IMG/VR virus record: IMGVR_UViG_3300011445_000031 | Span: 1-46,566 of that record | Source: a virus | DNA length: 46,566 nt | Strand: one strand, 5' to 3' | Part shown: piece after piece, positions 1,041-46,566 of the stretch | How positions within the stretch are numbered: position 1 is the first letter of the stretch | Layout: every line of letters begins with the position of its first letter | The notes under the pieces: model-generated | The model's input: only the letters and a program-made list of their open reading frames with translations | What the model was told of the DNA's origin: nothing | Databases searched by the model: none | Program-made: the position numbers and the translations under genes

Positions 1041-1310
1041 ATGAGTAGCAACGACTTGATGCTTCTGTCTGATTCTTTAGATAAGATAAGACAGTTAACA
1101 AATGATACAAAACTGAACGAAAAACTACAAGATAAAAAGTATTTAGAAATAGGGCAAGACATGGCGGCTGTTGCTCGATATGCAAATACCGTCGGTGGTA
1201 TTATGTTTGGTCTATATATGGCAGGTAGACCTGTAGATAAGGTTATTGATACAAAGTTTACAGAAAACGCTGTTATAGACGATACCACGGATAATAAAAA
1301 TGAATCTTAA
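1041..1310 (+). CDS. Hypothetical early protein (89 aa)
   Basis: ORF preceded by a strong SD (TAAGGAGGGAGC-ATG). Its 3' end overlaps the next ORF in the tightly packed operon. Confidence 0.6.
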   Translation: MSSNDLMLLSDSLDKIRQLTNDTKLNEKLQDKKYLEIGQDMAAVARYANTVGGIMFGLYMAGRPVDKVIDTKFTENAVIDDTTDNKNES

Positions 1311-2187
1311 AGAACTAGCTGCGGCTGTAAATACACCACCAGAAGGTGAAACGATTCTTATCTACGGAGATGGCAAGGTTGGTAAAAGCACACTTGCTGT
1401 TTCTGTAGCTAAGGCTAAACGTATTAAACAAGTAGATTGGTTTGACCTTGAAAATGGACAAGCTCGTCTTGTAACAATGGTTAAGACTGGAGAACTTACA
1501 GCAGAAGAAGCGGCTAAGATACGGATATTTCGTGTAAGAGATAGTGTAGAACAGCCACTTGCATTTGAAACAATGGGTAAAGTATTACTTGTTCCTGGGC
1601 CACATCAAGTATGTGATGCTCATGGACGTGTCATGCCTAATTGTAAAGAATGTAGAGATGCAAAAGCTAGCTTTCAGACTTTTAATATGAAAGAGCATAA
1701 TGCTGATACAGCTATTGTCATTGATACAGGTAGTCAATTAAGCGACAGTATCATGCATTACTATAATAAAGGTGAGATGCTAAAAGGCACAAGTGGCATG
1801 GATGCATATAGAGAGCAGGGATTAAGACTTGTTGAGTTTCTTACAGAGATACAGCGCGGAAGAACAAATATAATCATGGTAACACATAGTCTTGCTGTTG
1901 AATTGGAAGCGGGAACTGAAAGAATAGCACCTCTTGAATATAAAGGCCCGAAAGAGGAAAGACGCTATCCAATGATAGGAACACGTCCATTTAGTATGAA
2001 AGTAGGTAAATACTTTGGGCACGTTGCTTTTCTTAAAGTCCGACTAAGACAACATCAAGGCGGTAGTAGCACTGTATATCAACAAGATGTAATAACAGGT
2101 AGTCGTACTAATTGGCATATTGAAACACAAATTGACAAAGATAAGAAACAAATAATGAGTCTTGTTCCATTGTTTGATAGGACATAA
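1300..2187 (+). CDS. AAA_24 / Sak4-like RecA-fold ATPase (recombination-associated) with a Cys/His insertion
   Basis: Walker A is ILIYGDGKVGKSTLA, followed by DWFDLENG. Walker B-like segment is AIVIDTGSQL. A CDAHGRVMPNCKEC insertion looks like a zinc knuckle. Confidence 0.7.
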   Translation: MNLKELAAAVNTPPEGETILIYGDGKVGKSTLAVSVAKAKRIKQVDWFDLENGQARLVTMVKTGELTAEEAAKIRIFRVRDSVEQPLAFETMGKVLLVPGPHQVCDAHGRVMPNCKECRDAKASFQTFNMKEHNADTAIVIDTGSQLSDSIMHYYNKGEMLKGTSGMDAYREQGLRLVEFLTEIQRGRTNIIMVTHSLAVELEAGTERIAPLEYKGPKEERRYPMIGTRPFSMKVGKYFGHVAFLKVRLRQHQGGSSTVYQQDVITGSRTNWHIETQIDKDKKQIMSLVPLFDRT

Positions 2188-2188
2188 T

Positions 2189-2824
2189 ATGTGGATATGC
2201 TACTATACTGATATAACAAATGAATTAACTACACGACTTACAAATATAAGTATTGCTAGTGCACGTAAACACATGCCAGATGTAAAGGTTCTTTTTATCT
2301 ATCCTGATTGGCATTTACTTAATCCAGAAATAGGTAAACATGTAGATCATATGTATCCTATAATGAACTTACCTAAAGGTGTGCATTGGGATTATCGACG
2401 TTGTTTAGCTAATGCAGAAGTTACTGGTGAATGTCTTTTTATTGATACAGACACGGTATTTCAGCATGATGTAAGTAATGTATGGACACATCCTTTTGAT
2501 GTCGCAGCTACATTGAGAGAGAAACCATTTGAGGCGCAAATACCTTATAATATGGGTGTATGTTTTTCAAGAACACCACGATTCTGGAAACATGTAGCAT
2601 TACAAATACCTAAAGCAAGTAATCATTGGCGAGATAGTGAACTAGCATTTAGTAAAACAGCTATGATAACTAGTGAATATACAGTTAGACAGTTACCTGG
2701 ACATTTGTATAATAAAACACCGGAAACCAAAGGAGAAAGCGTAAGTCACGCTTACATTGTACATTATAAAGGTGTCGTAAGAAAGCCGTGGATGCTTGCA
2801 AGAGAAAAGGAGTTTATAGAATGA
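2189..2824 (+). CDS. Glycosyltransferase, GT8-like (retaining GT-A fold)
   Basis: Motifs: DxD in LFIDTDTVF, YNMGVCF (GT8 'NxGV'), and the C-terminal HYKGVVRKPW (GT8 'HxxGxxKPW'). I chose ATG 2189, 1 nt after the upstream stop, rather than the track start at 2162. Confidence 0.75.
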   Translation: MWICYYTDITNELTTRLTNISIASARKHMPDVKVLFIYPDWHLLNPEIGKHVDHMYPIMNLPKGVHWDYRRCLANAEVTGECLFIDTDTVFQHDVSNVWTHPFDVAATLREKPFEAQIPYNMGVCFSRTPRFWKHVALQIPKASNHWRDSELAFSKTAMITSEYTVRQLPGHLYNKTPETKGESVSHAYIVHYKGVVRKPWMLAREKEFIE

Positions 2825-3528
2825 TAGCAATTCTTGTGCCAAGTAGAGGGCGGCCTGAACAATTTTTAAGATTCCTAGATAGTATACAGAGCCTATCTTC
2901 AGCATTTACGCCAATTAGAATATATAGTGCTCATGATGAAGATGATCCAGTAATAGACGACTATCTAACAATTCATACCTCAATTGCTAATATCCAGTTA
3001 CAGAAGAATGTTAAAACAAGGAAACCTGTACCACAGTTGATGGAATATCTTGGAATGAAAGCTTATAATGATGGCGCAGATTTTATCGTTATAGCCAGTG
3101 ATGATGTTATTTGCACAACGACGGATTGGGATTTAACACTTGTCGAGAAATATAACAGATATAAAGATAAACTTATGGTAGGTTACTTTAATAATGGTTT
3201 TGATAGAAACATGGCAGAACATTATGTAGTATCGAAAGAATGGATTAAGGTTCTTGGATACTACGCACCAATTCAATTTAACCATTTCTATGTAGATTCG
3301 TGGATAGGTGATATTGCAAATAGAGCCGGACGATTGGAATTTTTTAAAGATATAAAATTTAGGCATATGCATTTCAAATATAATCTTGCTGCGTATGATG
3401 ATACATACAAGAGAACAAGAGAAAATGATTTTCCAAGAAAAGATAAAAAAATATTTGATGCAACAGAACCAGCACGAGTTATTGACGCTGAGAGAATAAA
3501 GGCTGCAATATGCGCGTCGGCTTTATAA
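2821..3528 (+). CDS. Glycosyltransferase, GT-A fold (GT2-like)
   Basis: N-terminus MIAILVPSRGRPEQF is typical of GT2-type Rossmann starts, and there is an acidic motif IVIASDDVI. SD AAGGAG is present, and an ATGA overlap with the upstream stop supports the start at 2821. Confidence 0.6.
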   Translation: MIAILVPSRGRPEQFLRFLDSIQSLSSAFTPIRIYSAHDEDDPVIDDYLTIHTSIANIQLQKNVKTRKPVPQLMEYLGMKAYNDGADFIVIASDDVICTTTDWDLTLVEKYNRYKDKLMVGYFNNGFDRNMAEHYVVSKEWIKVLGYYAPIQFNHFYVDSWIGDIANRAGRLEFFKDIKFRHMHFKYNLAAYDDTYKRTRENDFPRKDKKIFDATEPARVIDAERIKAAICASAL

Positions 3529-4382
3529 GTACTGGCACTAATAATGTAATGGCGGTTATAAACAGTGCTAAGTGTATCCCGGAATTTAAACGTATAGAAA
3601 CGCTTATATTCAGCCATCAGGTAGGTAGAAACCAGAATCCAAATATAGCAGATTGGGCACGTAATGAACGGTTAGATTATATATTCTTTATAGGTAGCGC
3701 AGCAGGAACAGACCCAGCGCCAGAGCACTTTATAGCAATAAAGCACATGAATATTCCTTGCTATCATATATGTTTTGATGGTGGAGATAAACCCTGGTGG
3801 CCGCGCCTAGAGCTTTATAAGCAACAATGTCTATTTGACTTACAAGTAAATATAGATGGGTTAAAAGGTAATCCTTGTGACCTAACAACACTATGTCCTC
3901 TTAATCCTGATGATTTTAATCCATTGACAAAAAAGACAATACCATTTGGATTCGCAGGAAACATTAAATCCGCTGTGCGTTCTAATCTTGTTCGGCAGCT
4001 ACAGAATGGCGGATATATACAAGTCCGTGTACGAGATGCTGCTGTTGATTCATTTAAAGACTACTGTAATTTCCTAAACAACTGTAGTGGTATGCTTAAT
4101 ATTAGCTATACAGGTACAGGAAAAGCACACCATGTCAAAGCTAGAATACTTGAAGGAATGTATGCCGGATGTGTTCTTGTCGAAGATGAACGTGCCCCTA
4201 CAAAAGAATACTTTGTGCAAGGAATTGACTACTTATCATATAACGGGACATCAGAAAGCGTTATACGAGCTATTAATGCTACGGGCGTTGTGCTCACAGA
4301 CAGGATTCGAGAGAAAGCCATAGACTTATATGGCCCAAGAGCATTCTATAAACAAATCTTAGGAAAGGGAATATTAGCGTGA
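3510..4382 (+). CDS. Glycosyltransferase, GT-B fold (CgeB/GT1-like C-terminal domain)
   Basis: C-terminal motif KARILEGMYAGCVLVEDERAPTKEYFVQGIDYL resembles the Glyco_trans_1_2/CgeB signature 'R.fE....G..lv...'. The ORF overlaps the previous gene by 19 nt. Confidence 0.5.
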   Translation: MRVGFISTGTNNVMAVINSAKCIPEFKRIETLIFSHQVGRNQNPNIADWARNERLDYIFFIGSAAGTDPAPEHFIAIKHMNIPCYHICFDGGDKPWWPRLELYKQQCLFDLQVNIDGLKGNPCDLTTLCPLNPDDFNPLTKKTIPFGFAGNIKSAVRSNLVRQLQNGGYIQVRVRDAAVDSFKDYCNFLNNCSGMLNISYTGTGKAHHVKARILEGMYAGCVLVEDERAPTKEYFVQGIDYLSYNGTSESVIRAINATGVVLTDRIREKAIDLYGPRAFYKQILGKGILA

Positions 4383-4975
4383 TGCTTACAGGTTCACGCC
4401 CTACATTACTTATTATTGATGACTATTATACACAACCTAATGGAAATCCTATGGCACAAGCCAATGAAGTTCTCATTGATTTAGATAATCTAGATAGCAT
4501 TGATCTTGCTACGGTTGAAGCGGCGCCTGAGTTTATTGAACCACCTGCTGGACGTTATAAACTTGGACTGCAAGCAAAAGTAGAAGAGTATGAAAAAGAT
4601 GAGAAAGATGATGAAGGTGATAAGACTGGTGAGAAAGTCAAAGCGAAGCGAATCCGCTTTACTTATGACATACAGGAAGTTCTGGAATTGAAAGACAAGA
4701 AAGAACTGCTTCCTGTTGAAGGTTCGCTGTTTAGCGAAAGCTTTACAGTGACACCAGAAGGTTTGCGTTTCTTTAAAACTCGTGCAGAAGCAATTCTTGG
4801 CGAGTTAGGAAATGCGAAGATTTCAGAAGTTGTTACGGAGTTAAATACTGGTGTATCTATTACCGCAGATGTTAAGTTACGGCTTACTGATGGTACAGAT
4901 GCAGAAGGCAACAAGCGGAAATACACCAATATAAATGTGCACGTTCTTCAAGGACACCAGAAGGCAAATCTGTAA
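4379..4975 (+). CDS. Putative ssDNA-binding / DUF669-like recombination accessory protein with an acidic central tract
   Basis: GTGATG start overlaps the upstream stop. Features are a PPAGRYKLGL motif, a KDE-rich tract, and a position in the module downstream of the Sak4-like ATPase. The start is uncertain (alternative ATG at 4452). Confidence 0.35.
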   Translation: MMLTGSRPTLLIIDDYYTQPNGNPMAQANEVLIDLDNLDSIDLATVEAAPEFIEPPAGRYKLGLQAKVEEYEKDEKDDEGDKTGEKVKAKRIRFTYDIQEVLELKDKKELLPVEGSLFSESFTVTPEGLRFFKTRAEAILGELGNAKISEVVTELNTGVSITADVKLRLTDGTDAEGNKRKYTNINVHVLQGHQKANL

Positions 4976-4991
4976 TAGTTGTAGATCACAT

Positions 4992-5021
4992 AGGCCCGCT
5001 TGTATAGGGGCCTTTTCTTTT
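4992..5021 (+). terminator. Intrinsic (rho-independent) terminator
   Basis: AGGCCC (4992-4997) pairs with GGGCCT (5008-5013) around a 10-nt loop, followed by TTTTCTTTT. It sits 17 nt after the stop at 4975. Confidence 0.55.
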
Positions 5022-5045
5022 GTTCTATACACAACAGGAAAACAA

Positions 5046-5399
5046 ATGAGTAAAAAGCACTTGCCATTACCTGAAATAAAAGAAAAGACAATCTTGGATA
5101 TAGCTGCTGAACTTGTACAAGGTGATAGAAATAAAACATACAAACATCCGAATGAGAACTTTAGGAATATTAAAGAATTCTGGAATACTTACTTTCTTGC
5201 TATAAATGGACGTGACGATTCGGCACAAGTAGATTCTAGAAATGATGGTTATCCAACAAAAATAAATGAATTCGATGTAGCTATGCTGATGGTATTAATG
5301 AAGGTTGCGCGCCTTGCTACAAATAATACGCATAGAGATAGTCTTATTGACATTGCAGGATATGCTCGCTGTGCAGAACGGGTTCTTACAAATAAATAA
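5046..5399 (+). CDS. DUF6378-like protein (family annotated as dATP/dGTP diphosphohydrolase domain)
   Basis: Motif GDRNKTYKHPNENFRNIKEFW matches the 'GDRxxxYG...nF' signature as I remember it. I chose ATG 5046, downstream of the terminator, rather than 4935, which would read through the hairpin. Confidence 0.55.
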   Translation: MSKKHLPLPEIKEKTILDIAAELVQGDRNKTYKHPNENFRNIKEFWNTYFLAINGRDDSAQVDSRNDGYPTKINEFDVAMLMVLMKVARLATNNTHRDSLIDIAGYARCAERVLTNK

Positions 5400-9256: not shown

Positions 9257-9538
9257 ATGCGCCTCGGTAAATTCATCGTAACAGCAGATACACTTAAGGA
9301 CTTAGATAAAGTTCAGGCTATAACAACGTTTGTTAGCGTAAATGTTATTATTCTTGAAAAGATTGTTGCAGCAAATCCTGACGGAAAACAATTTGCGGTA
9401 TTTATAGGAACTTGTGCATTATTTAATGAATGCCCAGATGATACAAGGAAGATCCCACTTTATGAAGTTACATTTGTCGATAATCTAGTTGGGACAATAG
9501 CTGATAAGCTTCGCTGTGAGGTAAAGGAAGTAGTATGA
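9257..9538 (+). CDS. Hypothetical protein (93 aa)
   Basis: Starts immediately after the upstream stop and shares an ATGA overlap with the next gene. Confidence 0.6.
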   Translation: MRLGKFIVTADTLKDLDKVQAITTFVSVNVIILEKIVAANPDGKQFAVFIGTCALFNECPDDTRKIPLYEVTFVDNLVGTIADKLRCEVKEVV

Positions 9539-10077
9539 ATTGGGTTATTAACCAGCTACTATGGTTTACAACTCATGAACATCATCTTGCAGATTATATG
9601 TATAGATATTGGATATTTTTTAAACGCAGAAAGGATAAGTGGCAGTTAAGACTTCATTATATTCTTAGAAGTGACCATGATAGACACTTACATAATCATC
9701 CTTGGTGGTATGTTAGCATTATATTAAGTGGTGGATATTGGGAAGTTACGGAAGCAAATAATGAATGGATAAAAAAGTATGTAACAGATTTAACTAATGA
9801 TAGATATGTATATGATCCAGAAAACATATTTCGTGATGGTAATACATGGTATAAAAAGAAATGGTATGGCCCTGGTTCTATCTTATTTAGGAAAGCGGCG
9901 CATGTGCATAGATTAAGAATACAACCGGAAAGGCGTGCATGGACTTTATTCTTGTGTGGAAAGAAAACGGCGGAATGGGGATTTATAACTGAGAAGGGAT
10001 TTATCCCATGGAAAGTCTATCTTGTTATGACAGGACAAACTGAGATGATAGAAGATGAGGAATTCAACAATGGCTAA
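9535..10077 (+). CDS. His-rich cupin-like protein (HxHNHPW...SGGYWE...HVHRL)
   Basis: The motif set DRHLHNHPWWYVSIILSGGYWE, AAHVHRLRI and EWGF resembles a phage 'HDHPW' family with a predicted cupin-type metal site. The function is unknown. Confidence 0.4.
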   Translation: MNWVINQLLWFTTHEHHLADYMYRYWIFFKRRKDKWQLRLHYILRSDHDRHLHNHPWWYVSIILSGGYWEVTEANNEWIKKYVTDLTNDRYVYDPENIFRDGNTWYKKKWYGPGSILFRKAAHVHRLRIQPERRAWTLFLCGKKTAEWGFITEKGFIPWKVYLVMTGQTEMIEDEEFNNG

Positions 10078-10457: not shown

Positions 10458-10724
10458 GTGACAACAAAAGTTAAATATGAAGATATTAAATTTGTAAATG
10501 AGGAAATACAGAAACTATTCAAAGGTGATTATAAAGATTTCAATGATTGGGAAAGGACGTTTCTAACGGATATGAATGGGTTAATCCAATTAGAAACGCC
10601 CCTTTCCGAAAAGCAAATATACCAGTTATATAAAGCTTATTTTAAACACATAGAAGGTGATGAAAGTGAGGCCGAAGATTGGGCACGAGAACACGGGCTA
10701 ATACATCTTTATAGGCCACGTTAA
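10458..10724 (+). CDS. Hypothetical protein (88 aa), last gene of the rightward arm
   Basis: GTG start with GGGAAAGAGG upstream. Its stop codon overlaps the stop codon of the convergent 1801-aa gene. Confidence 0.55.
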   Translation: MTTKVKYEDIKFVNEEIQKLFKGDYKDFNDWERTFLTDMNGLIQLETPLSEKQIYQLYKAYFKHIEGDESEAEDWAREHGLIHLYRPR

Positions 10725-13700
10725 AATGTATCCTTCAACATCCTACGCAGCGGAGAGTTAGGTTCTAACTTCCGTAATAAGTCGTAGGATGTTCCTTCTT
10801 CTGTTCTACTCATGATCTCATTCATTACAGCATTCCATCCTTTGTTACTTCCACCATGTTGCAGATAGTCTTGTGCTACAGCATCAACTAAGTCATCATC
10901 CATACCACCACCACGTATTGCTGTGCGTAGTTTATTTACTGCTTTCTGCCTATTATCATAATCCGCCGCGCCATAGTAACTATGAAGATTAAGCGCATTA
11001 CGTGTAACTTGTTCTTCCAGTGGTCTAACACTTAACATCCTAGAGACAATACCATTCAATGTCCAAACATCATCACTTGTTGCAACGGTCTGACCTTTCC
11101 TGGTTATGCTTTCACCTGCGACAATTTCAGCCGCACGAGCTATTGGCCTTGAGAGCGTTTGTAACGAAAGACCTTCCATCATACCTTGAAGTTTCCCCTC
11201 AAATCCAGGCTGTTCTACTACGCTTGTTAACATCTTACTCACCGCATTATACACCCCAACAGTGCTATTTACTATTGCAAGGTCGGCCATTTGAGATGGT
11301 ATGCGTGGAGCAATATCTCCGCGAGTGTATAGACTTGGCCCTAAGTTGGAAGGAAGTCCATAAAGAATAATCTCTGCCATAGGATCACCAACTGCTCTAT
11401 ATGTACCTGTAGTAAGATCGTAATTATCTTGGCTCATGTGTTCACCAATGAACTTAGATAACTGTTCATAACCTGGCCAAGATGCTGTACCGAAGATGCC
11501 AGCCTGCATAGCCATTGTGCTTGCGAGATTCTTAAACTGTCCTTTCTCTATATTCCTATATACACTTTGAGCATACGTGATCATGTAAGTCTGGAATAAG
11601 CCAAGAACAGAACCAAAGGTTCCTTGAAACATAGCAGGTCTTTGTGCTGCATGGTAGTTACCTATAACCTTATCAGCCATAGCTACTGCATAGATAGTAG
11701 CACCTCTGTCACTTATTCCTGGATAAGCGTGTTTAGCTGCAAGATACCCAGTAAGCATTGTCTGTGAACGTGTCCATTTCTCTACCCAATCACTTGGTGT
11801 TGATAGAACATTCATAACTCTACTGTTCTGCAATCCTTCCGCCAAGTCTAATAACTCATTTGCCGCGCCTTTCGTAGTTACAGGAACATGCAATTTTCCA
11901 TTAATATCACTGAACTGTCGAACAACCTGATCTATAAGACCTTCAGCTTCCCATTGTTTCTGCATCTCTATTCCCTTTGGATTAAACCTAAAGCGTGCAG
12001 CATCCATAGGAAGCCGTAAAGGAAGCGTAATCTTAGCGCCATTAGCAAGTGCTGTCTTAGGCAATCCTTCCATAAGCGCCGCGTTAGTGAGAATAGGAAG
12101 GCTTATCGCATTAACTAGTGGATGTGCTGCTTCTAAGAACCGAAGCATAAAGGTTCCCATTAATCCATTCGCAGCACTTACAACACGTTTACTGTTAATT
12201 GTAGGAGCACCAATAAGCGATGCTTGATACAATTGGAAAGAACCACTCCATGGGTCTTGTATTCCTTGTTTTGTTAAATCAGCTACAACAGCATCAAAAT
12301 GTTCTTTACTGCCGACAGTCTTTCTGAATATTCTTGTTGTAGCATCAAGTGCTTGACCTGAAGTAACAATAGACATATCTACAAATTCATTAACACTTTT
12401 CCATGTAGTAAATTGATTAAGGTTACTAATACCAAGCAGTGCGTTCTTGGTTGTTATAGCCGCATCTTCAGCTTTCTGTTTATTGAAGCCACGCAGCGGT
12501 TGATTAAGATAGAACTTTTGATTCATCTCACTAAAAGAATCAAGCTTCTGTGTTATATCATTTAGATACATTTCATTGTATTTACGCATACCGCTAAGAA
12601 TCTGATGTTGATAGCCAACCATTATGTCATCAATACGTCGAGCATCAGCAGAGACAATAGCAGTAGCACTTGCACCAGTATGTTTCAGTTGATTGTTCGC
12701 AATCTGCATATACGGTTCACCATCCATATATCCGTGGATAGTATTAAACCTTTCCTGTTGACCTTTTGTGACAATCTCCATTGTAGGATTCTTAACAACA
12801 ATCTCTGCCTTATATGCAGCTTCAAGACTAGCTAAATCCTCTGCTGTATTTGCATACAGAACAGAAGGCCGCTGTTTACCTGTGTTATCAATAACATAAC
12901 TGAAGAACTTATTTGTAAGGTTCGGCGGCGGAAGATAGATTCCTAGGTCATTCAATGGCCCTTGTCCACGTAGTTCTCTATTAAGGTTATGCAATCCTAG
13001 TATTTCAGACGAAGCATTAAACGTTCCAGTCAACGCATTAATCGCTTGCGGTGTTTTTACATAGTAAACACTTCCATCTTGGTTCTTCACAGGAACCTCA
13101 ACAACTTTTCCTTCTCTTACTTCACGCTGAACAACAAAACCAAATCCATTCTCCGGATCGATTCTCCAACCTTTCCATCCTTGTAAGCTAAGTAACTTAT
13201 TCTCAAGAACGTTAAATTCAATTAGTGCCGAATGATTAGCACCCAGGCCTTTAAAAGACTCACCTACAGGTTCTAATATTCGTTTAAGTTGTGCATCCTG
13301 AATATCAGAAACACGCTTACCGATATACGTAACAAGTGGCCCATCTTGTATATTACGTAGAGCATTATCTACTGACTGAAAGAATGGACTTCCTACAAGG
13401 ATATTGTTAACTTCACCAATATTCTGCTTAAGTTGATCCAGCCACATATGCATTTCTTTGGCGGCAGCAGGATCATTTAAAGGACTGTAAAAATCTGCAA
13501 GACTATTAGCAAGCTGATTCTTGTGCTTAGCTGTAACTATACCAACAAATTGCTGATGTGCCGATGACAAAAAGCGTTCGTCAAGAGATGCACTAAGCTT
13601 AACAGGATTAGTAGTAAATGGGTCACCTTGTAATGCTACAATACGATTCTTTTGATTAAGATACTCAGATTCTATCAACTTCGCATCAGTATAACGTCTC

Positions 13701-16126
13701 CAATTAGGAATCTCATCGAGATTACGTCCTGCGCCAACAAGTAAGACAGCTTCTTTCGTAGTATTAAGCCTTGCTGCAATTTCCTCAGGAGCAAAGGTTG
13801 TATCTTTGATAAGCTCACGGATTGCATTTTCCGTTTGTTGTGTATAATGTTGAACAAGTTCTACGCCATTAAGTTTATTCTGTGAACCTGCATTAGGAAT
13901 ATGCACAACTTTATTAGCACCTGTAAGTGTACCTTCAACACCTTCGATGTCTAAACCTGGTAAACGCTTATGATGTGGAGCAGCTACTAGGATTTCGTAT
14001 TCAGAACGGTTACCTTTACCAAATGCACCAATTATATTTTCAACCGGAATTTCAGCAAGTTCTGCTGTACCAAAATTATTAGATACAGATGCCCGTGTAG
14101 AAAATGACTCTACTGACGATGCACCTTTAACTTCTCCACGAACACCGCGATATAAGCGAATATTTCCATTAGCATCAGCTACACTTGCAAGTTCTTGTCT
14201 AAACTTAGCGCCCTTTTCCCAAAGTTCTTCTGCTACAGCGTGCATTGTAGCCCGTTGATTAGTTCCAACGACTTGTACAACATCTCTTTCGGCTGGCAAT
14301 GTTTTACGAAAGTAAGTATCAAATCCTCGTCTTAATCTTGCAATTCCTTCTTTCATACTTACACTACCACCATGTATCCAGTCACTAATAGCTTGACTTG
14401 CTTGTGGTGATACACCAACATCAATAAAAGCAACACGCTTACTTTCAATAATAGCTTCAATATCCTGTAAATGCGTAGCTTTAACACCAGCCGCGCCACT
14501 CTCAATAAAGCGTTTCGTCTGATTAAAACTCGGTAAGCTACTTGTAATATTAAACTGTATTGTCTCTCTTAACTCCGGAGAAACCTTACTAAGCCAACTT
14601 GTTGCTGCGTTAAGTCTAGCCAGGTTATCAGGCGCAATACCGATGTTAACAACATCTGATGCTTTAACTGCTTTACTCCATGCATTGAGTTCATCAAGAA
14701 AAACGGAGTCTTGAACAGCCGAAGGTTTACCACGAGCAGCAGTCTCAATAAAGTAGTCTGCGCCAGGATTCTGTAAGTTAACAGCTTTAGGCGCAGCAGG
14801 CTTATAACCTTTAAGGTCTACAGCTAATGCTGAAGCACCTGCAAGATTTCTGTCGTATAAGTCACCCGTAGATGGACGATAGAAAACAGTCTTAAGTTTT
14901 GTTTTTTCTTTTGTTAGTTTTGCAAGTTCTTCTTTTAAACTAACAACTTTATTCATCGCAGCAATTGGGTCTTTTCCACTATCTTGTTTTAATTTTTTAA
15001 CGAGATTTTCAAAGGCTGGTAAAGCGTTTTCAATTTGACTAATTCTATCAAGAAGTGCTTTCGTAGGTTTCTCCAACATATCAACTTCAAGTGTAAGTCT
15101 ATCACCTTTAGTCTTAGGAATAAAGCTCATCTTAGGAAGCTTAATCTTATCTACACCCATCATCTCTGGCATACCCAATAGTTGCTCAACAGCGCCCTTA
15201 AGCTCTATATAATCACTAGGAACATCTTTACTTTTCGGAGAAAGCCACGGAGCAGCTTCTATAATCCGCTCTTCACGCTTAGCCTTCATGATGGTCAATA
15301 GCTCATCACTAAGGTTCTTAGTAAGTGGATTAACTTCGCTCTTAATAACAGCTTCAAGATTCCTAATAGTCATATTATACGTCTGAACCTGAGCACCATT
15401 AGGTAATGCCTCATTCACATGGATATAGTTACTTCCAACAATAGCTTGTGCTTCAGTCCTAATATCTCCTAAGGCCGCTCTAGCAGCGGAACGTGCTTGT
15501 ATAACACCTAATCCACCACCAATACCAGCACCAACTGTAGCCCATAAAGCAAAGTTACTATACGGAGACTCCATATAATCTTCCATATATGGATGGGCAT
15601 TAAGCGCACCTACAGTAGCCATCTCAAATATTGCCGCATCAATTACGTTTTCACCAATCTTTGCAGCATATAGCTTCTTCATTGTATCTGAGTAGATCTT
15701 CGTATCATACTTAGCATTTTCCATTAATACACGAAGATCTGACTGCAATGCTTGTGCCTTTGTTCCTGCAAAAACGTCACTTACAGCAGCAGCAAGACTA
15801 TTGCTTTTACCTAAAGCGGTCATTCCATTTTTAGCAAAGCCAAGTAGTTTAATCGTTGCAGCTTGTGGAGCGACAATACCAGCTAAGAAACTAGCAGCTT
15901 CTACACCTTCTCTGTGTTCACCATAAAATGAAAGCGCATCAGCATCGGCTTTTTGTAGAATATCCTGTGTAGATAATTCAGGCCCACCAACAAGACCTAC
16001 AGTACTATTCCATACTGTCGAAAGAAAGTCTGCACCTGTAGATACAATTGCGTTCTTAGCTCCACCAATAATAGAAGCTGCAGCATTACCTGCGATGTCT
16101 TTATCTTCAATATAATCTAAAGGCAT
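10721..16126 (-). CDS. Giant internal virion / ejection protein (1801 aa) with an embedded ADP-ribosyltransferase domain
   Basis: It is the last and largest gene of the late operon. It has Gly-rich hydrophobic N-terminal segments (WATVGAGIGGGLGVIQA). The R-S-ExE signature lies at aa ~658-711. Confidence 0.6.
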   Translation of the reverse strand: MPLDYIEDKDIAGNAAASIIGGAKNAIVSTGADFLSTVWNSTVGLVGGPELSTQDILQKADADALSFYGEHREGVEAASFLAGIVAPQAATIKLLGFAKNGMTALGKSNSLAAAVSDVFAGTKAQALQSDLRVLMENAKYDTKIYSDTMKKLYAAKIGENVIDAAIFEMATVGALNAHPYMEDYMESPYSNFALWATVGAGIGGGLGVIQARSAARAALGDIRTEAQAIVGSNYIHVNEALPNGAQVQTYNMTIRNLEAVIKSEVNPLTKNLSDELLTIMKAKREERIIEAAPWLSPKSKDVPSDYIELKGAVEQLLGMPEMMGVDKIKLPKMSFIPKTKGDRLTLEVDMLEKPTKALLDRISQIENALPAFENLVKKLKQDSGKDPIAAMNKVVSLKEELAKLTKEKTKLKTVFYRPSTGDLYDRNLAGASALAVDLKGYKPAAPKAVNLQNPGADYFIETAARGKPSAVQDSVFLDELNAWSKAVKASDVVNIGIAPDNLARLNAATSWLSKVSPELRETIQFNITSSLPSFNQTKRFIESGAAGVKATHLQDIEAIIESKRVAFIDVGVSPQASQAISDWIHGGSVSMKEGIARLRRGFDTYFRKTLPAERDVVQVVGTNQRATMHAVAEELWEKGAKFRQELASVADANGNIRLYRGVRGEVKGASSVESFSTRASVSNNFGTAELAEIPVENIIGAFGKGNRSEYEILVAAPHHKRLPGLDIEGVEGTLTGANKVVHIPNAGSQNKLNGVELVQHYTQQTENAIRELIKDTTFAPEEIAARLNTTKEAVLLVGAGRNLDEIPNWRRYTDAKLIESEYLNQKNRIVALQGDPFTTNPVKLSASLDERFLSSAHQQFVGIVTAKHKNQLANSLADFYSPLNDPAAAKEMHMWLDQLKQNIGEVNNILVGSPFFQSVDNALRNIQDGPLVTYIGKRVSDIQDAQLKRILEPVGESFKGLGANHSALIEFNVLENKLLSLQGWKGWRIDPENGFGFVVQREVREGKVVEVPVKNQDGSVYYVKTPQAINALTGTFNASSEILGLHNLNRELRGQGPLNDLGIYLPPPNLTNKFFSYVIDNTGKQRPSVLYANTAEDLASLEAAYKAEIVVKNPTMEIVTKGQQERFNTIHGYMDGEPYMQIANNQLKHTGASATAIVSADARRIDDIMVGYQHQILSGMRKYNEMYLNDITQKLDSFSEMNQKFYLNQPLRGFNKQKAEDAAITTKNALLGISNLNQFTTWKSVNEFVDMSIVTSGQALDATTRIFRKTVGSKEHFDAVVADLTKQGIQDPWSGSFQLYQASLIGAPTINSKRVVSAANGLMGTFMLRFLEAAHPLVNAISLPILTNAALMEGLPKTALANGAKITLPLRLPMDAARFRFNPKGIEMQKQWEAEGLIDQVVRQFSDINGKLHVPVTTKGAANELLDLAEGLQNSRVMNVLSTPSDWVEKWTRSQTMLTGYLAAKHAYPGISDRGATIYAVAMADKVIGNYHAAQRPAMFQGTFGSVLGLFQTYMITYAQSVYRNIEKGQFKNLASTMAMQAGIFGTASWPGYEQLSKFIGEHMSQDNYDLTTGTYRAVGDPMAEIILYGLPSNLGPSLYTRGDIAPRIPSQMADLAIVNSTVGVYNAVSKMLTSVVEQPGFEGKLQGMMEGLSLQTLSRPIARAAEIVAGESITRKGQTVATSDDVWTLNGIVSRMLSVRPLEEQVTRNALNLHSYYGAADYDNRQKAVNKLRTAIRGGGMDDDLVDAVAQDYLQHGGSNKGWNAVMNEIMSRTEEGTSYDLLRKLEPNSPLRRMLKDTF
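10737..10793. other. Extended hairpin at the convergence point of the two arms (candidate bidirectional 3'-end structure)
   Basis: AACATCCTACG (10737-10747) pairs with CGTAGGATGTT (10783-10793). Inside it, CGGA pairs with TCCG and AGTTAG with CTAACT around a GTT loop. Confidence 0.4.
13967..14419 (-). other. ADP-ribosyltransferase (R-S-ExE, C2/C3/VIP2-like) domain inside the 1801-aa protein
   Basis: Translation reads ...NIRLYRGVRGEVKGASSVESFSTRASVSNNFGTAELAEIPVENIIGAFGKGNRSEYEILVAA. The triad is LYRG (Arg), SFST (Ser-Thr) and EYEIL (ExE). Confidence 0.6.
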
Positions 16127-38791: not shown

Positions 38792-39199
38792 ATGAAAAGG
38801 ATTAATAAAGTAAATGATGAATATAGCTTTATGCTAACTGAAACAGGCAAGCTATATGATGCACGTATTAAAGGTTATATGGATAATCTGATAACTGCTA
38901 AGTGGCAGTTTATAGCCGTTGAGCAACAAAGAGGCGTATGTTATTACGGGCACAAGGTAATAACAATCCCTATGTATGCAATACGCAAGGGAATAGATCA
39001 TACCACGTATTATCTAGCGCATGAAATGGCCCATGCTTATGCAGGATATAAAGCAAATCATGGGCCGTTATTCATGGAATGGCTTGCTAAAATATGCCCG
39101 ATAGAATGGCAATACATGGAATATGAATACAAGCCACGTCATGCGGCAAATGCAGGATTAGCAATATCAAATGAAATGTTAATGAGATATAAAGGATAA
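38792..39199 (+). CDS. SprT-like zinc metalloprotease
   Basis: YYLAHEMAHAYAGYKANHGPLFMEW contains HExxH plus the downstream HG..F/W that is typical of SprT-like domains. It is the first gene of the rightward operon and has an SD (TAAAGGATAA). Confidence 0.65.
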   Translation: MKRINKVNDEYSFMLTETGKLYDARIKGYMDNLITAKWQFIAVEQQRGVCYYGHKVITIPMYAIRKGIDHTTYYLAHEMAHAYAGYKANHGPLFMEWLAKICPIEWQYMEYEYKPRHAANAGLAISNEMLMRYKG

Positions 39200-39396: not shown

Positions 39397-40617
39397 ATGG
39401 ATAAGATACAAGAACTAAAGTATCGCTTTGCTAGTGATACAAGTTATAGATTCGCAGATATGCCAATCAATGATATAGAACAATTCATTGATGATTTTAA
39501 CTATACAGGCATTAACGCAACTATAACGCAATCAAAGTATGCTAAACGCGCAGGATTAACACAACTGAAAACGATAATGCCAATTATAGAACATATAATC
39601 GCGCCAATAGAAAAAGCCTTTTATGATTCAGTATGCGGTATCTATAGTCCTATTCCTCATTCAGATACAATAAAGCCTGAACAATACCGCAGGATTCAAT
39701 CAGATCAACCGATACCATTTACTAAAACTATACAACATAATAACCATAGAACAAAAGAAAACATACTACATCTCGGCACATATACACGCTGCATTTGTGC
39801 GGAGACTGGTATATCTTTTGCTGTAGCGTTACCGAATCCGCTTCATATTACCTTTACACTCTTACACCCATTTGCATTTTATCCTAACGTAATAGCAGAG
39901 ATAAAAGAGTGTCAGAAAACAGGCTATCCAGTTTCATCATTTGATAGTCAAGCTTTAGCAGGGATGTTAATAACAATACTAAAGCATAAAGGTTATGCTG
40001 TTTGCCGTGATTATGTTGCTGCTAATGCGCGCCTTAGACAAGTTAATCGCAAGTCTCTAACATGGGCATTATCTTATTTTCATAAGGCTACAATGCGCCA
40101 GAATTTGCCACAGATTAACTTACTTGCTGATGGTAATCCTACAACGCAATTAATAGGATTCATACAGATATGTAAAGGTGAGGATTCATCCTTACAAGCG
40201 CATCATGTATTTCAAACAAAAGAAAAGAAAATAACAGCGCGTGTATTTCAGACTGAACACGCAAAAGAATCAGCGGAATTACGTAATGATATTAAATCAT
40301 GCCGTTCTATATTAGAGCGCATACAAAAAGATAATACGCATGTATCTGATACACTCTATACACAAATAGATCAACGTATTAGTAAGATAGCTGTTATGAA
40401 TGATACAGCAAAAGAAAATCTTATTGCTGATATTATTGGCGCATTTGGTGATACAGCTAACACTAAGGCACTCGCTCTTATTATACGTGCTAATGATATG
40501 ACAGCGACACAAAAAGAACTTCTATCCTTTAGCATGGAAATAGAAAAGGATTTAGAAGGATTTAAAACCAATAAGAAACCTATAAGCTTTGCTGAATTAA
40601 TGGGTAAGGTGAAATAA
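39397..40617 (+). CDS. Large early orphan protein (406 aa)
   Basis: Long ORF with the TAAAGGATAA RBS context. I recognised no motif. Confidence 0.7.
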   Translation: MDKIQELKYRFASDTSYRFADMPINDIEQFIDDFNYTGINATITQSKYAKRAGLTQLKTIMPIIEHIIAPIEKAFYDSVCGIYSPIPHSDTIKPEQYRRIQSDQPIPFTKTIQHNNHRTKENILHLGTYTRCICAETGISFAVALPNPLHITFTLLHPFAFYPNVIAEIKECQKTGYPVSSFDSQALAGMLITILKHKGYAVCRDYVAANARLRQVNRKSLTWALSYFHKATMRQNLPQINLLADGNPTTQLIGFIQICKGEDSSLQAHHVFQTKEKKITARVFQTEHAKESAELRNDIKSCRSILERIQKDNTHVSDTLYTQIDQRISKIAVMNDTAKENLIADIIGAFGDTANTKALALIIRANDMTATQKELLSFSMEIEKDLEGFKTNKKPISFAELMGKVK

Positions 40618-46180: not shown

Positions 46181-46566
46181 CGATACAAATTTGGTATCAC
46201 GGTAATTGTGATGATGGTTTTGGTTCAGCATGGGCAGTAAGTCGTTGGTTTAGGAAGCATGAACCATTGATGGATATAAACTATGTTCCATGTTTTTATG
46301 GAAAAGAGCCACCTCCCGTTAAAAAGGAAGATATAATCTATATTGTTGATTTTTCGTATCCAAGACCTATTCTTGAACAAATAAAAGATTGTGTCACACG
46401 TCTTACAATTCTTGACCATCATAAAACAGCACAGGAGGATTTAAAAGGTTTTCCTAATGCTATTTTTGATATGGATAGAAGTGGTGCAGTTATAACTTGG
46501 TCATATTTCCATAGTCAATCTGTGCCTTTATTGTTAAGATACGTCCAAGACAATGACCTGTGGACA
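46177..46566 (+). CDS. DHH/DHHA1-family phosphoesterase, 5' portion (continues at position 124 after removing the duplicated 123 nt)
   Basis: ATG 46177 overlaps the upstream stop (ATGA). DHH motifs are HGNCDDGFGSA, IVDFS and ILDHHKT. The frame is open to the window end and in frame with 1..588. Confidence 0.85.
   Translation, partial: MTIQIWYHGNCDDGFGSAWAVSRWFRKHEPLMDINYVPCFYGKEPPPVKKEDIIYIVDFSYPRPILEQIKDCVTRLTILDHHKTAQEDLKGFPNAIFDMDRSGAVITWSYFHSQSVPLLLRYVQDNDLWT
46444..46566. repeat. Terminal overlap, identical to 1-123
   Basis: Direct comparison with the window start. Confidence 0.95.

Follow-up and report, generated by a model that had tools for sequence, protein, structure and literature searches.

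The stretch of DNA considered here, hereafter the window, comprises the 46,566 nucleotides (nt) of the IMG/VR virus record IMGVR_UViG_3300011445_000031, and positions are counted along its whole length. Among the replication genes of this virus lie three consecutive genes for putative glycosyltransferases (GTs), which are the subject of this analysis:

2189..2824, + strand: ORF1, 211 amino acids (aa); predicted GT8-type GT-A glycosyltransferase with retaining-type motifs
2821..3528, + strand: ORF2, 235 aa; predicted divergent GT2-like GT-A glycosyltransferase
3510..4382, + strand: ORF3, 290 aa; predicted compact CgeB/GT4-like GT-B glycosyltransferase

The first of these open reading frames (ORFs) begins with the ATG at 2189, one base past the TAA stop codon of the preceding gene (2185-2187). 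ORF1 and ORF2 share an ATGA overlap (2821-2824), the overlap between ORF2 and ORF3 amounts to 19 nt (3510-3528), and the stop codon of ORF3 (TGA, 4380-4382) is part of a GTGATG sequence at 4379-4384. A preliminary description, drawn up from the sequence letters, had claimed three consecutive, overlapping ORFs with these junctions; its coordinates are exact, and the products match public gene calls (P0001, P0015, and P0008, of 211, 235, and 290 aa) with 100% identity and coverage. The trio recurs, with the same gene order and the same overlaps, in three further contigs (a soil viral contig of 45.6 kb, one of 7.6 kb, and a Logan contig of 30.7 kb), where the proteins are 57-67% (ORF1), 45-49% (ORF2), and 47-75% (ORF3) identical to those encoded in the window; therefore, these are real genes under selection. 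There are no terminator-like sites on the + strand within the trio region, and promoter-like matches are few (9, vs 16.6 +/- 4 in shuffled sequences), which, together with the gene overlaps, indicates that the trio is part of the surrounding operon. None of the three proteins contains a hydrophobic segment (the maximum Kyte-Doolittle value in a 19-residue window is <0.9), and their isoelectric points (pI) are 7.8, 6.6, and 8.5, respectively. A megablast search with the trio region against 50,697 cultured phage genomes gave no match, tblastn searches of the same genomes with ORF1 and with ORF3 found no relative, and single-sequence searches of the PDB with each of the three proteins gave no significant match.

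Family and fold of the three enzymes

The assignment of ORF1 comes from its family rather than from the single sequence. The protein contains a DxD motif (in LFIDTDTVF), an NxGV motif (in YNMGVCF), and, near the C-terminus, the sequence HYKGVVRKPW, and it scores 21.8 bits against the Pfam family PF01501 (Glyco_transf_8), which is under the gathering cut-off of 24.3. An exhaustive profile search yielded a family of 1305 representatives, mostly of ~200 aa. In an 81-sequence alignment of this family, G123 and H192 are invariant, whereas D86, D88, N121, K194, and G195 are conserved in at least 90% of the sequences; 37 of the 81 match PF01501 at E < 0.01 (best E = 1.7e-8), and 21 match PF03407. The PDB matches of the family profile are almost all GT8 enzymes, namely the xylosyltransferase domain of LARGE1, glycogenin-1 and glycogenin-2, GlyE, and LgtC, and the alignments to LARGE1, glycogenin-2, and GlyE span the region from the DxD motif through the H-x-x-G-x-x-K motif. 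Judging from these profile matches to solved GT8 structures, ORF1 is a divergent member of the GT8 clan with a predicted GT-A fold.

ORF2 begins with IAILVPSRGRP and contains a pair of aspartates in IASDDV; in the family alignment, R9, R11, D94, and D95 are invariant. The protein matches phrog_14945, labelled 'glycosyltransferase' (E = 2.7e-33), and its homologues show weak matches to Glycos_transf_2 and Glyco_tranf_2_3; ORF2 itself has no match in Pfam. The top sequence match in the PDB, the GT2 domain of heparosan synthase, extends across the DD motif and is marginal (E = 0.059). The AlphaFold2 (AF2) model, built from four sequences, is poor, with a mean predicted local distance difference test score (pLDDT) of 48 and values of 51-72 in the N-terminal half. 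Hence, the matches of that half to SpsA, AvpGT, GnT-I, TarS, and TarP (E from 7e-5 to 1e-2) serve as supporting evidence only. Taken together, the motifs, the profile matches, and the low-confidence model point to a divergent GT2-like enzyme of the GT-A type, and this is the weakest case of the trio.

For ORF3, the evidence is mostly structural. The family has two invariant motifs, CFDGGDKPWW in the N-terminal domain and HVKxRxxE in the C-terminal domain (HHVKARILE in ORF3), and the AF2 model is confident (pLDDT 85, predicted template modeling score 0.85). A Foldseek search of the PDB with this model retrieved the tetrahydrobiopterin glucosyltransferase BGluT, BshA, HepE, and AviGT4 (E from 5e-8 to 1e-5, template modeling (TM) scores of ~0.6-0.66), and the top 19 fold matches are all GT-B glycosyltransferases with a probability of 1.00. 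T4 beta-glucosyltransferase (beta-GT, family GT63) is absent among the best 50 PDB fold matches. In BFVD, the matches are CgeB/YkvP-like GTs of giant viruses and cyanophages. At the sequence level, ORF3 reaches 22.9 bits against PF13524 (Glyco_trans_1_2), under the cut-off of 25; its homologues P0009, P0010, and P0013 carry precomputed PF13524 matches, and the homologue in contig L040 scores 27.7. The profile of the ORF3 family gave no match in the PDB. As modelled, ORF3 is a CgeB/GT4-like GT-B enzyme that consists of two Rossmann-like domains, with the predicted donor site in the C-terminal one. Like bacterial CgeB/YkvP-type and GT4 enzymes (BshA, BGluT, HepE), it has the GT-B fold and, towards the C-terminus, a donor-binding region with the pattern H-x-K-x-R-x-x-E; compared to these enzymes, it is unusually short (290 aa), and its CFDGGDKPWW motif is confined to a small, mostly viral family.

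The motifs that were quoted in the preliminary description are all present and fall in conserved alignment columns, and the profile and Foldseek searches uphold its assignment of all three ORFs to glycosyltransferases of the families named there (GT8-like, GT-A, and CgeB/GT1-type). Its statement that the trio represents three different folds has to be amended: because GT8 and GT2-like enzymes share the GT-A fold, there are two folds and three families.

Insertion point and phage genome

The trio is flanked by two genes of the replication region:

1300..2187, + strand: Sak4-like/AAA_24 ATPase, left flank (PF13479, E = 6.9e-10; phrog_124, E = 4.3e-11)
4382..4975, + strand: acidic protein of 197 aa (pI 4.8), right flank (phrog_13889, 'unknown function')

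Three relatives were available for comparison, namely Polaromonas phage Tiera, Pseudomonas phage 119X/PaP2 (Fredfastierviridae), and EBPR podovirus 3. In each of them, the orthologue of the right-flank gene (Tiera_030, 119X gp34, EBPR3 gp32) comes directly after that of the ATPase gene (Tiera_031, 119X gp36, EBPR3 gp35), so that the order is the ATPase, this partner, PolA, and the primase, with no intervening GTs. Sensitive hidden Markov model searches of all ORFs, which covered the complete genomes of Tiera and 119X and, for EBPR podovirus 3, a 19-kb stretch around the replication genes, found no member of the GT families of the trio (best E > 0.2). The adjacency of the flanking genes in the relatives and the lack of these GT families there support the view that the trio is a lineage-specific insertion between the ATPase gene and its usual neighbour. 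The identification of the upstream partner as an AAA_24/Sak4-like ATPase and the suspicion of an inserted cassette, both voiced in the preliminary description, are therefore borne out.

The same description had called the downstream partner similar to a single-stranded DNA-binding protein (SSB), and this label is not retained: the protein has no Pfam match, a six-sequence profile gave only spurious matches against the PDB, and the PHROG family that it belongs to carries no functional name. Translational coupling of ORF3 to this gene is doubtful, too. The GTGATG junction is indeed there, but the annotated start at 4382 is uncertain: in the GT-carrying clade, and only there, the protein is extended by 23 residues at its N-terminus, and the orthologues in Tiera, 119X, and EBPR podovirus 3 start where the window has the internal ATG at 4451, which may be the true start. 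Since the relatives start at that position, the coupling through TGATG at 4382 may have come about with the insertion instead of marking the true start.

The genome that received the cassette is the small, lytic-type genome of a 119X/PaP2/Tiera-like podovirus with 38% GC. The window has a 123-bp direct repeat at its ends (1-123 and 46444-46566), and a gene for a DHH phosphoesterase (46177-end plus 28-588) continues across the junction; hence, the assembly is circular and complete, with 46,443 unique bases. The phage has an SU10-type capsid, portal, and adaptor, and it shares with the relatives, in unchanged order, the genes for the primase, PolA, helicase, exonuclease, terminase, portal, capsid, and an 1801-aa virion protein; PolA used as a single query retrieved only close relatives. 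Pfam and PHROG scans of essentially all ORFs of the complete genome, which may miss very divergent base-hydroxylating enzymes among unannotated ORFs, turned up no integrase or repressor families, no sugar-nucleotide genes, and no ThyA/ThyX, TET/JBP, DNA methyltransferase, or deoxynucleoside monophosphate kinase. What the preliminary description had observed, namely the lack of any hydroxymethylase or thymidylate-synthase homologue and of sugar-nucleotide genes, holds in these scans over the complete genome.

Candidate acceptors of the glycan

What these enzymes might modify can be approached through the company that their relatives keep in other genomes. A survey of 149 neighbouring proteins on 18 contigs gave 44 families, the best 25 of which include PF13524 GTs (13 proteins), epimerases/dehydratases (8), sugar-type methyltransferases (5 and 4), GT8 enzymes (5), cytidylyltransferase-like proteins (4), MptE-like proteins (2), and radical SAM/B12 proteins (2); no base-modifying family is found among these best 25 of 44. 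ORF1-family genes occur in a separate lineage of ~40 kb podovirus contigs, where they lie between the major head and the tail tubular genes and are adjoined by a methyltransferase gene and a gene for a GT8 paralogue. ORF3-family genes occur in tandem, with two to four paralogues in a row. Two viral contigs that are unrelated to each other (L046, 6946-11402, and L043, 7141-10460) each have three such paralogues followed by an ORF2-family gene, in L046 with a sugar epimerase gene in between, and these arrays directly adjoin genes for tape measure or tail proteins. A GT8-type gene repeatedly precedes an ORF2-family gene, matching the order of ORF1 and ORF2 in the window. ORF2-family genes are, in addition, repeatedly accompanied by genes for epimerases/dehydratases of nucleoside diphosphate sugars (NDP-sugars) and for MptE/Maf-like proteins, the domain of which we take to be that of the flagellin-glycosylation Maf family. 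An ORF2 homologue is also found in the sugar island of Pelagibacter phage HTVC008M, and those of Streptomyces and Arthrobacter phages belong to GT-GT-cytidylyltransferase modules surrounded by genes of DNA metabolism; a bacterial homologue of ORF1 is located between TPR proteins, beside genes for a PglL/Wzy_C-type ligase and pilins. This gene company marks the three GT families as parts of phage glycan-biosynthesis islands that are often embedded in virion modules, and it makes a protein or glycoconjugate acceptor more likely.

In the ~40 kb podovirus contigs just mentioned, the genes wedged between those for the major head and the tail tubular proteins, namely that of the ORF1-family GT together with its methyltransferase and GT8-paralogue neighbours (5268-10478 of L025, IMG/VR 3300020147_000018; likewise in L016, L027, L030, and L034), form a candidate virion-glycosylation module. 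Contig L047 carries four ORF3-family paralogues, and L058 carries four ORF2-family paralogues. The closest ORF1 homologue beyond the GT-carrying clade (37% identity) belongs to a locus at 625-3066 of L071 (Logan SRR21686403); it adjoins a fusion of MptE/Maf-like and methyltransferase domains and a 98-aa protein with a weak match to the Acb2/Tad1-hairpin, an anti-defence sponge family. The GT gene upstream of the ORF2 homologue in Streptomyces phage Faust was considered as a relative of ORF1 and rejected (hhalign probability 0.15).

The reading that we tentatively place first is the stepwise assembly of a glycan from host NDP-sugars on virion proteins. The presence of three different transferases suggests a division of labour in which one adds the first sugar and the others lengthen the chain, and the multi-sugar, stepwise assembly that the preliminary description envisaged is plausible. 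The enzyme classes, the insertion, the lack of base-hydroxylating and sugar-nucleotide genes in the scans, the lack of membrane segments, and the gene contexts elsewhere are shown here; in which order the enzymes act, from which donor sugars, and on which acceptor is what we infer. In this scenario, a lineage of 119X/Tiera-like podoviruses would have acquired the cassette horizontally, between the Sak4-like ATPase gene and its neighbour, and would co-transcribe it with the replication genes. The products would be three soluble, cytoplasmic glycosyltransferases that use host NDP-sugars, because the phage has no sugar-nucleotide genes. One of them would start the chain on Ser/Thr, and the remaining two would lengthen it to a di- or trisaccharide; the acceptors would be proteins of the capsid or tail, which would receive their sugars in the cytoplasm before the particles are assembled or while assembly is under way, and the benefit could be shielding of the particle, its stability, or altered adsorption. 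The location of ORF1-, ORF2-, and ORF3-family genes within or beside head and tail modules in other contigs argues for such acceptors, as does the position of the bacterial ORF1 homologue near the ligase and pilin genes. In the mycobacteriophages Che8, Corndog, and Myrna, phage GTs glycosylate capsid and tail-tube proteins (PMC12363180, citing Freeman et al. 2023), and this is the only proven function of phage GT sets that do not act on DNA. The preliminary description had left the acceptor open among DNA, the host envelope, and a protein or small molecule, and had placed it outside the known phage schemes. A protein acceptor lies within these schemes, because mycobacteriophage virion glycosylation is a precedent.

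Several considerations weigh against a virion acceptor. The cassette lies here in the replication operon and not in a structural module. A capsid extension that could bear glycans was looked for and rejected, the major capsid protein being of 407 aa compared to 401 in Tiera and 418 in 119X. The cultured phage genomes in which ORF1 and ORF3 lack sequence relatives include those of the virion-glycosylating mycobacteriophages. The mixture of a TarP-like GT-A, a GT8, and a BshA-like GT-B enzyme resembles that of DNA-glycan clusters (bioRxiv 10.1101/2023.12.21.572611), which can be located near structural genes, too. Finally, gene context in other phages amounts to guilt by association, and the neighbour survey draws on the best 25 of 44 families.

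The main rival, which we consider unlikely, is the remodelling of the host envelope or other glycoconjugates, with lipid-linked or polymer precursors of the lipopolysaccharide (LPS) core or O-antigen, teichoic acid, or capsule serving as acceptors at the cytoplasmic face of the membrane. The altered surface would block superinfection or keep the progeny off debris; alternatively, host NDP-sugars would be diverted. GT8, GT2, and GT4-type enzymes are classical transferases of the LPS core and teichoic acids, and many of them are peripheral proteins without membrane segments. In line with this, the fold matches of the low-confidence ORF2 model include TarS, TarP, and GtrB, those of ORF3 include HepE, GumK, and MurG, and the locus of the bacterial ORF1 homologue, with its Wzy_C/PglL-type protein, is one of surface-glycan/pilin genes. 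Early or middle expression together with the replication genes would leave time for a surface change, and the neighbours found elsewhere (epimerases, KdsA-like DAHP_synth_1 proteins, cytidylyltransferases) are similar to those in the clusters of cell-wall type that cyanophages and pelagiphages carry (PMC12801897). However, the proven phage GTs that convert the host surface belong to temperate phages, as with the Gtr seroconversion systems (GtrA/GtrB/Gtr-type-specific), in which a GT works with a membrane flippase, whereas ORF1-3 have no hydrophobic segment, neither hydrophobicity analysis nor the Pfam and PHROG scans revealed a flippase or a membrane partner such as GtrA, and the same scans found no lysogeny genes. 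The occurrence of the same GT families inside head and tail modules elsewhere is also better accommodated by virion decoration.

DNA, on which the trio would build a di- or trisaccharide using either a base hydroxylated by an unrecognised enzyme or a canonical base modified by new chemistry, is an improbable acceptor in our estimate. The cassette lies within the replication operon, is translationally coupled, and is located just upstream of PolA and the primase. Its enzyme classes mirror those of the proven 5-hydroxymethylcytosine (5hmC)-glycan clusters, which consist of a TarP/JGT-like GT-A initiator, a GT8-like secondary GT, and a BshA/beta-GT-like GT-B enzyme (bioRxiv 10.1101/2023.12.21.572611). 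The DNA-glycan clusters of phages (Pyle et al., bioRxiv 10.1101/2023.12.21.572611; Lee et al., PMC13326640) build glycans of one to three sugars step by step, with host NDP-sugars as donors, and they share the link to replication genes with the trio. Besides, ORF2 matches the N-terminal part of phrog_2675, which is labelled 'DNA methyltransferase', its actinophage homologues reside among DNA-metabolism genes, and the genome contains two genes of the MazG-like/DUF6378 pyrophosphohydrolase type and a gene for a cupin-like protein (9535-10077). However, the known routes to glycosylated phage DNA involve either a ThyA homologue or a C5-methyltransferase together with a TET/JBP-type 5mYOX enzyme (bioRxiv 10.1101/2023.12.21.572611; PMC13326640), and, whereas the DNA-glycan clusters carry one or the other of these, the scans detected no base-hydroxylating enzyme of either route in the complete genome. 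The proven GT-B enzymes that act on DNA resemble beta-GT, which Pyle et al. (bioRxiv 10.1101/2023.12.21.572611) give as a top match for their GT53, GT66, and GT94, and the 290-aa ORF3 does not.

The composition of the genome points in the same direction. Over the whole window, GATC occurs 73 times vs 167 expected (z -7.3), GTAC 76 times vs 170 (z -7.2), AATT 239 times vs 343 (z -5.6), and CATG 140 times vs 188 (z -3.5), whereas CAGCTG is not encountered at all (0 vs 10.5 expected), and this avoidance of short palindromes is stronger than in the GT-less relatives Tiera and 119X. Such avoidance suggests restriction pressure on unmodified DNA rather than DNA under blanket protection. The neighbours of the GT families elsewhere, among the best 25 of 44 families, also are sugar-pathway genes and not base-modifying ones. 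Thus, the lack of a recognisable base-hydroxylation route, the palindrome avoidance, and the dissimilarity of ORF3 to beta-GT all make a DNA acceptor less likely. Fainter still is the prospect that DNA is glycosylated with neither a ThyA homologue nor a methyltransferase/TET pair, through an unrecognised hydroxylase or directly on a canonical base, which, if true, would be a new DNA hypermodification pathway; the hydroxylase could then be the cupin-like protein or a 406-aa early protein (39397-40617). The former, encoded at 9535-10077 (+), has 180 aa and an H-x-H...H cupin-like motif (LHNHPW), matches phrog_4786 'cysteine dioxygenase', and has no relative in Pfam or the PDB; 77 records of cultured phages (Mycobacterium, Burkholderia, Gordonia, Pseudomonas) contain homologues, and this wide distribution, with no link to GTs, counts against DNA as the acceptor, and its role as a base hydroxylase is set aside as speculation.

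Glycosylation of a small molecule, be it a soluble host metabolite, a signalling nucleotide, a toxin, or an antibiotic-like nucleoside, possibly as an anti-defence measure, is, like DNA glycosylation as a whole, improbable. The best solved-structure matches of ORF3 take small acceptors (tetrahydrobiopterin, malate for BshA, avilamycin, ergothioneine), the best match of the low-confidence ORF2 model, AvpGT, was crystallised with the nucleoside Ara-A, an ORF1 homologue is encoded beside the protein with the weak Acb2/Tad1-hairpin match, and a fused GT in contig L062 weakly matches 'GT4 in conflict systems', but these fold matches reflect generic GT-B/GT-A similarity (TM 0.4-0.66), three GTs in one coupled operon fit the extension of a glycan better than single-step tagging, and no defence-related or sponge gene adjoins the trio in the Pfam and PHROG scans.

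Other phage glycosyltransferase clusters and minor observations

The acceptors of GT clusters in metagenomic phages are almost never known, the proven cases being DNA glycosylation and virion glycosylation in mycobacteriophages only. Clusters of this sort are already common: of 25,000 GT-containing viral contigs, ~65% had no adjoining base-modification gene (Pyle et al., bioRxiv 10.1101/2023.12.21.572611). What is notable in the present case is that the cassette is minimal and consists of GTs only, that it sits at a cleanly defined insertion point, and that there are cultured relatives without it. The minimal cassette, its defined insertion, and the GT-less relatives (119X/PaP2 and Tiera) thus make a tidy natural 'plus/minus' system. 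If the virions are glycosylated, glycosylation of phage particles would reach beyond actinophages, with a bearing on the immunogenicity, stability, and adsorption of phages. The case also suggests that a GT cluster in a replication module need not imply DNA modification.

The mycobacteriophage loci, as described in PMC12363180 (Che8 gp107-110, Corndog, Myrna), are similar to the trio in that they comprise several soluble GTs outside the structural module. They decorate capsid and tail-tube proteins, a role that is proposed for the trio as well, and methyltransferases are often present in the related loci but not in this cassette. There is no sequence relation to ORF1 or ORF3 that tblastn can detect, and the lineage that carries the trio is a different one, that of 119X/Tiera-like podoviruses. 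A second group of similar loci, in marine and soil phages, is formed by the glycan islands of Pelagibacter phage HTVC008M, the cyanophage 'cell-wall' clusters, and those of the BE-cluster Streptomyces phages and of Arthrobacter phages, the GTs of which are 24-31% identical to ORF2. In these islands, a second GT gene lies directly upstream of the ORF2 homologue, as it does in the trio. Unlike the islands, which carry epimerases, cytidylyltransferases, and methyltransferases, the cassette described here is stripped down to GTs only.

Some other genes of the window deserve mention. The replication operon contains, in addition to the DHH phosphoesterase gene, two genes of the all-alpha NTP-pyrophosphohydrolase type (MazG/PRA-PH-like and DUF6378; 585-1031 and 4935-5399, both on the + strand), with no accompanying nucleotide-modifying enzyme; PHROGs names the DUF6378 gene 'phosphofructokinase'. 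In the early region, 38792-39199 (+) encodes a SprT-like/YgjP-like zinc metalloprotease with a HEMAH motif, and the 406-aa protein of the same region (39397-40617, +), which has no match in any library, has a conserved counterpart of 408 aa in the close relative L001. The 1801-aa protein encoded at 10721-16126 (-) belongs to no Pfam family and is present in the relatives as Tiera_022, 119X gp25, and EBPR3 gp20 (E down to 6e-188); giant virion proteins such as this one are typical of the Tiera/119X phage group.

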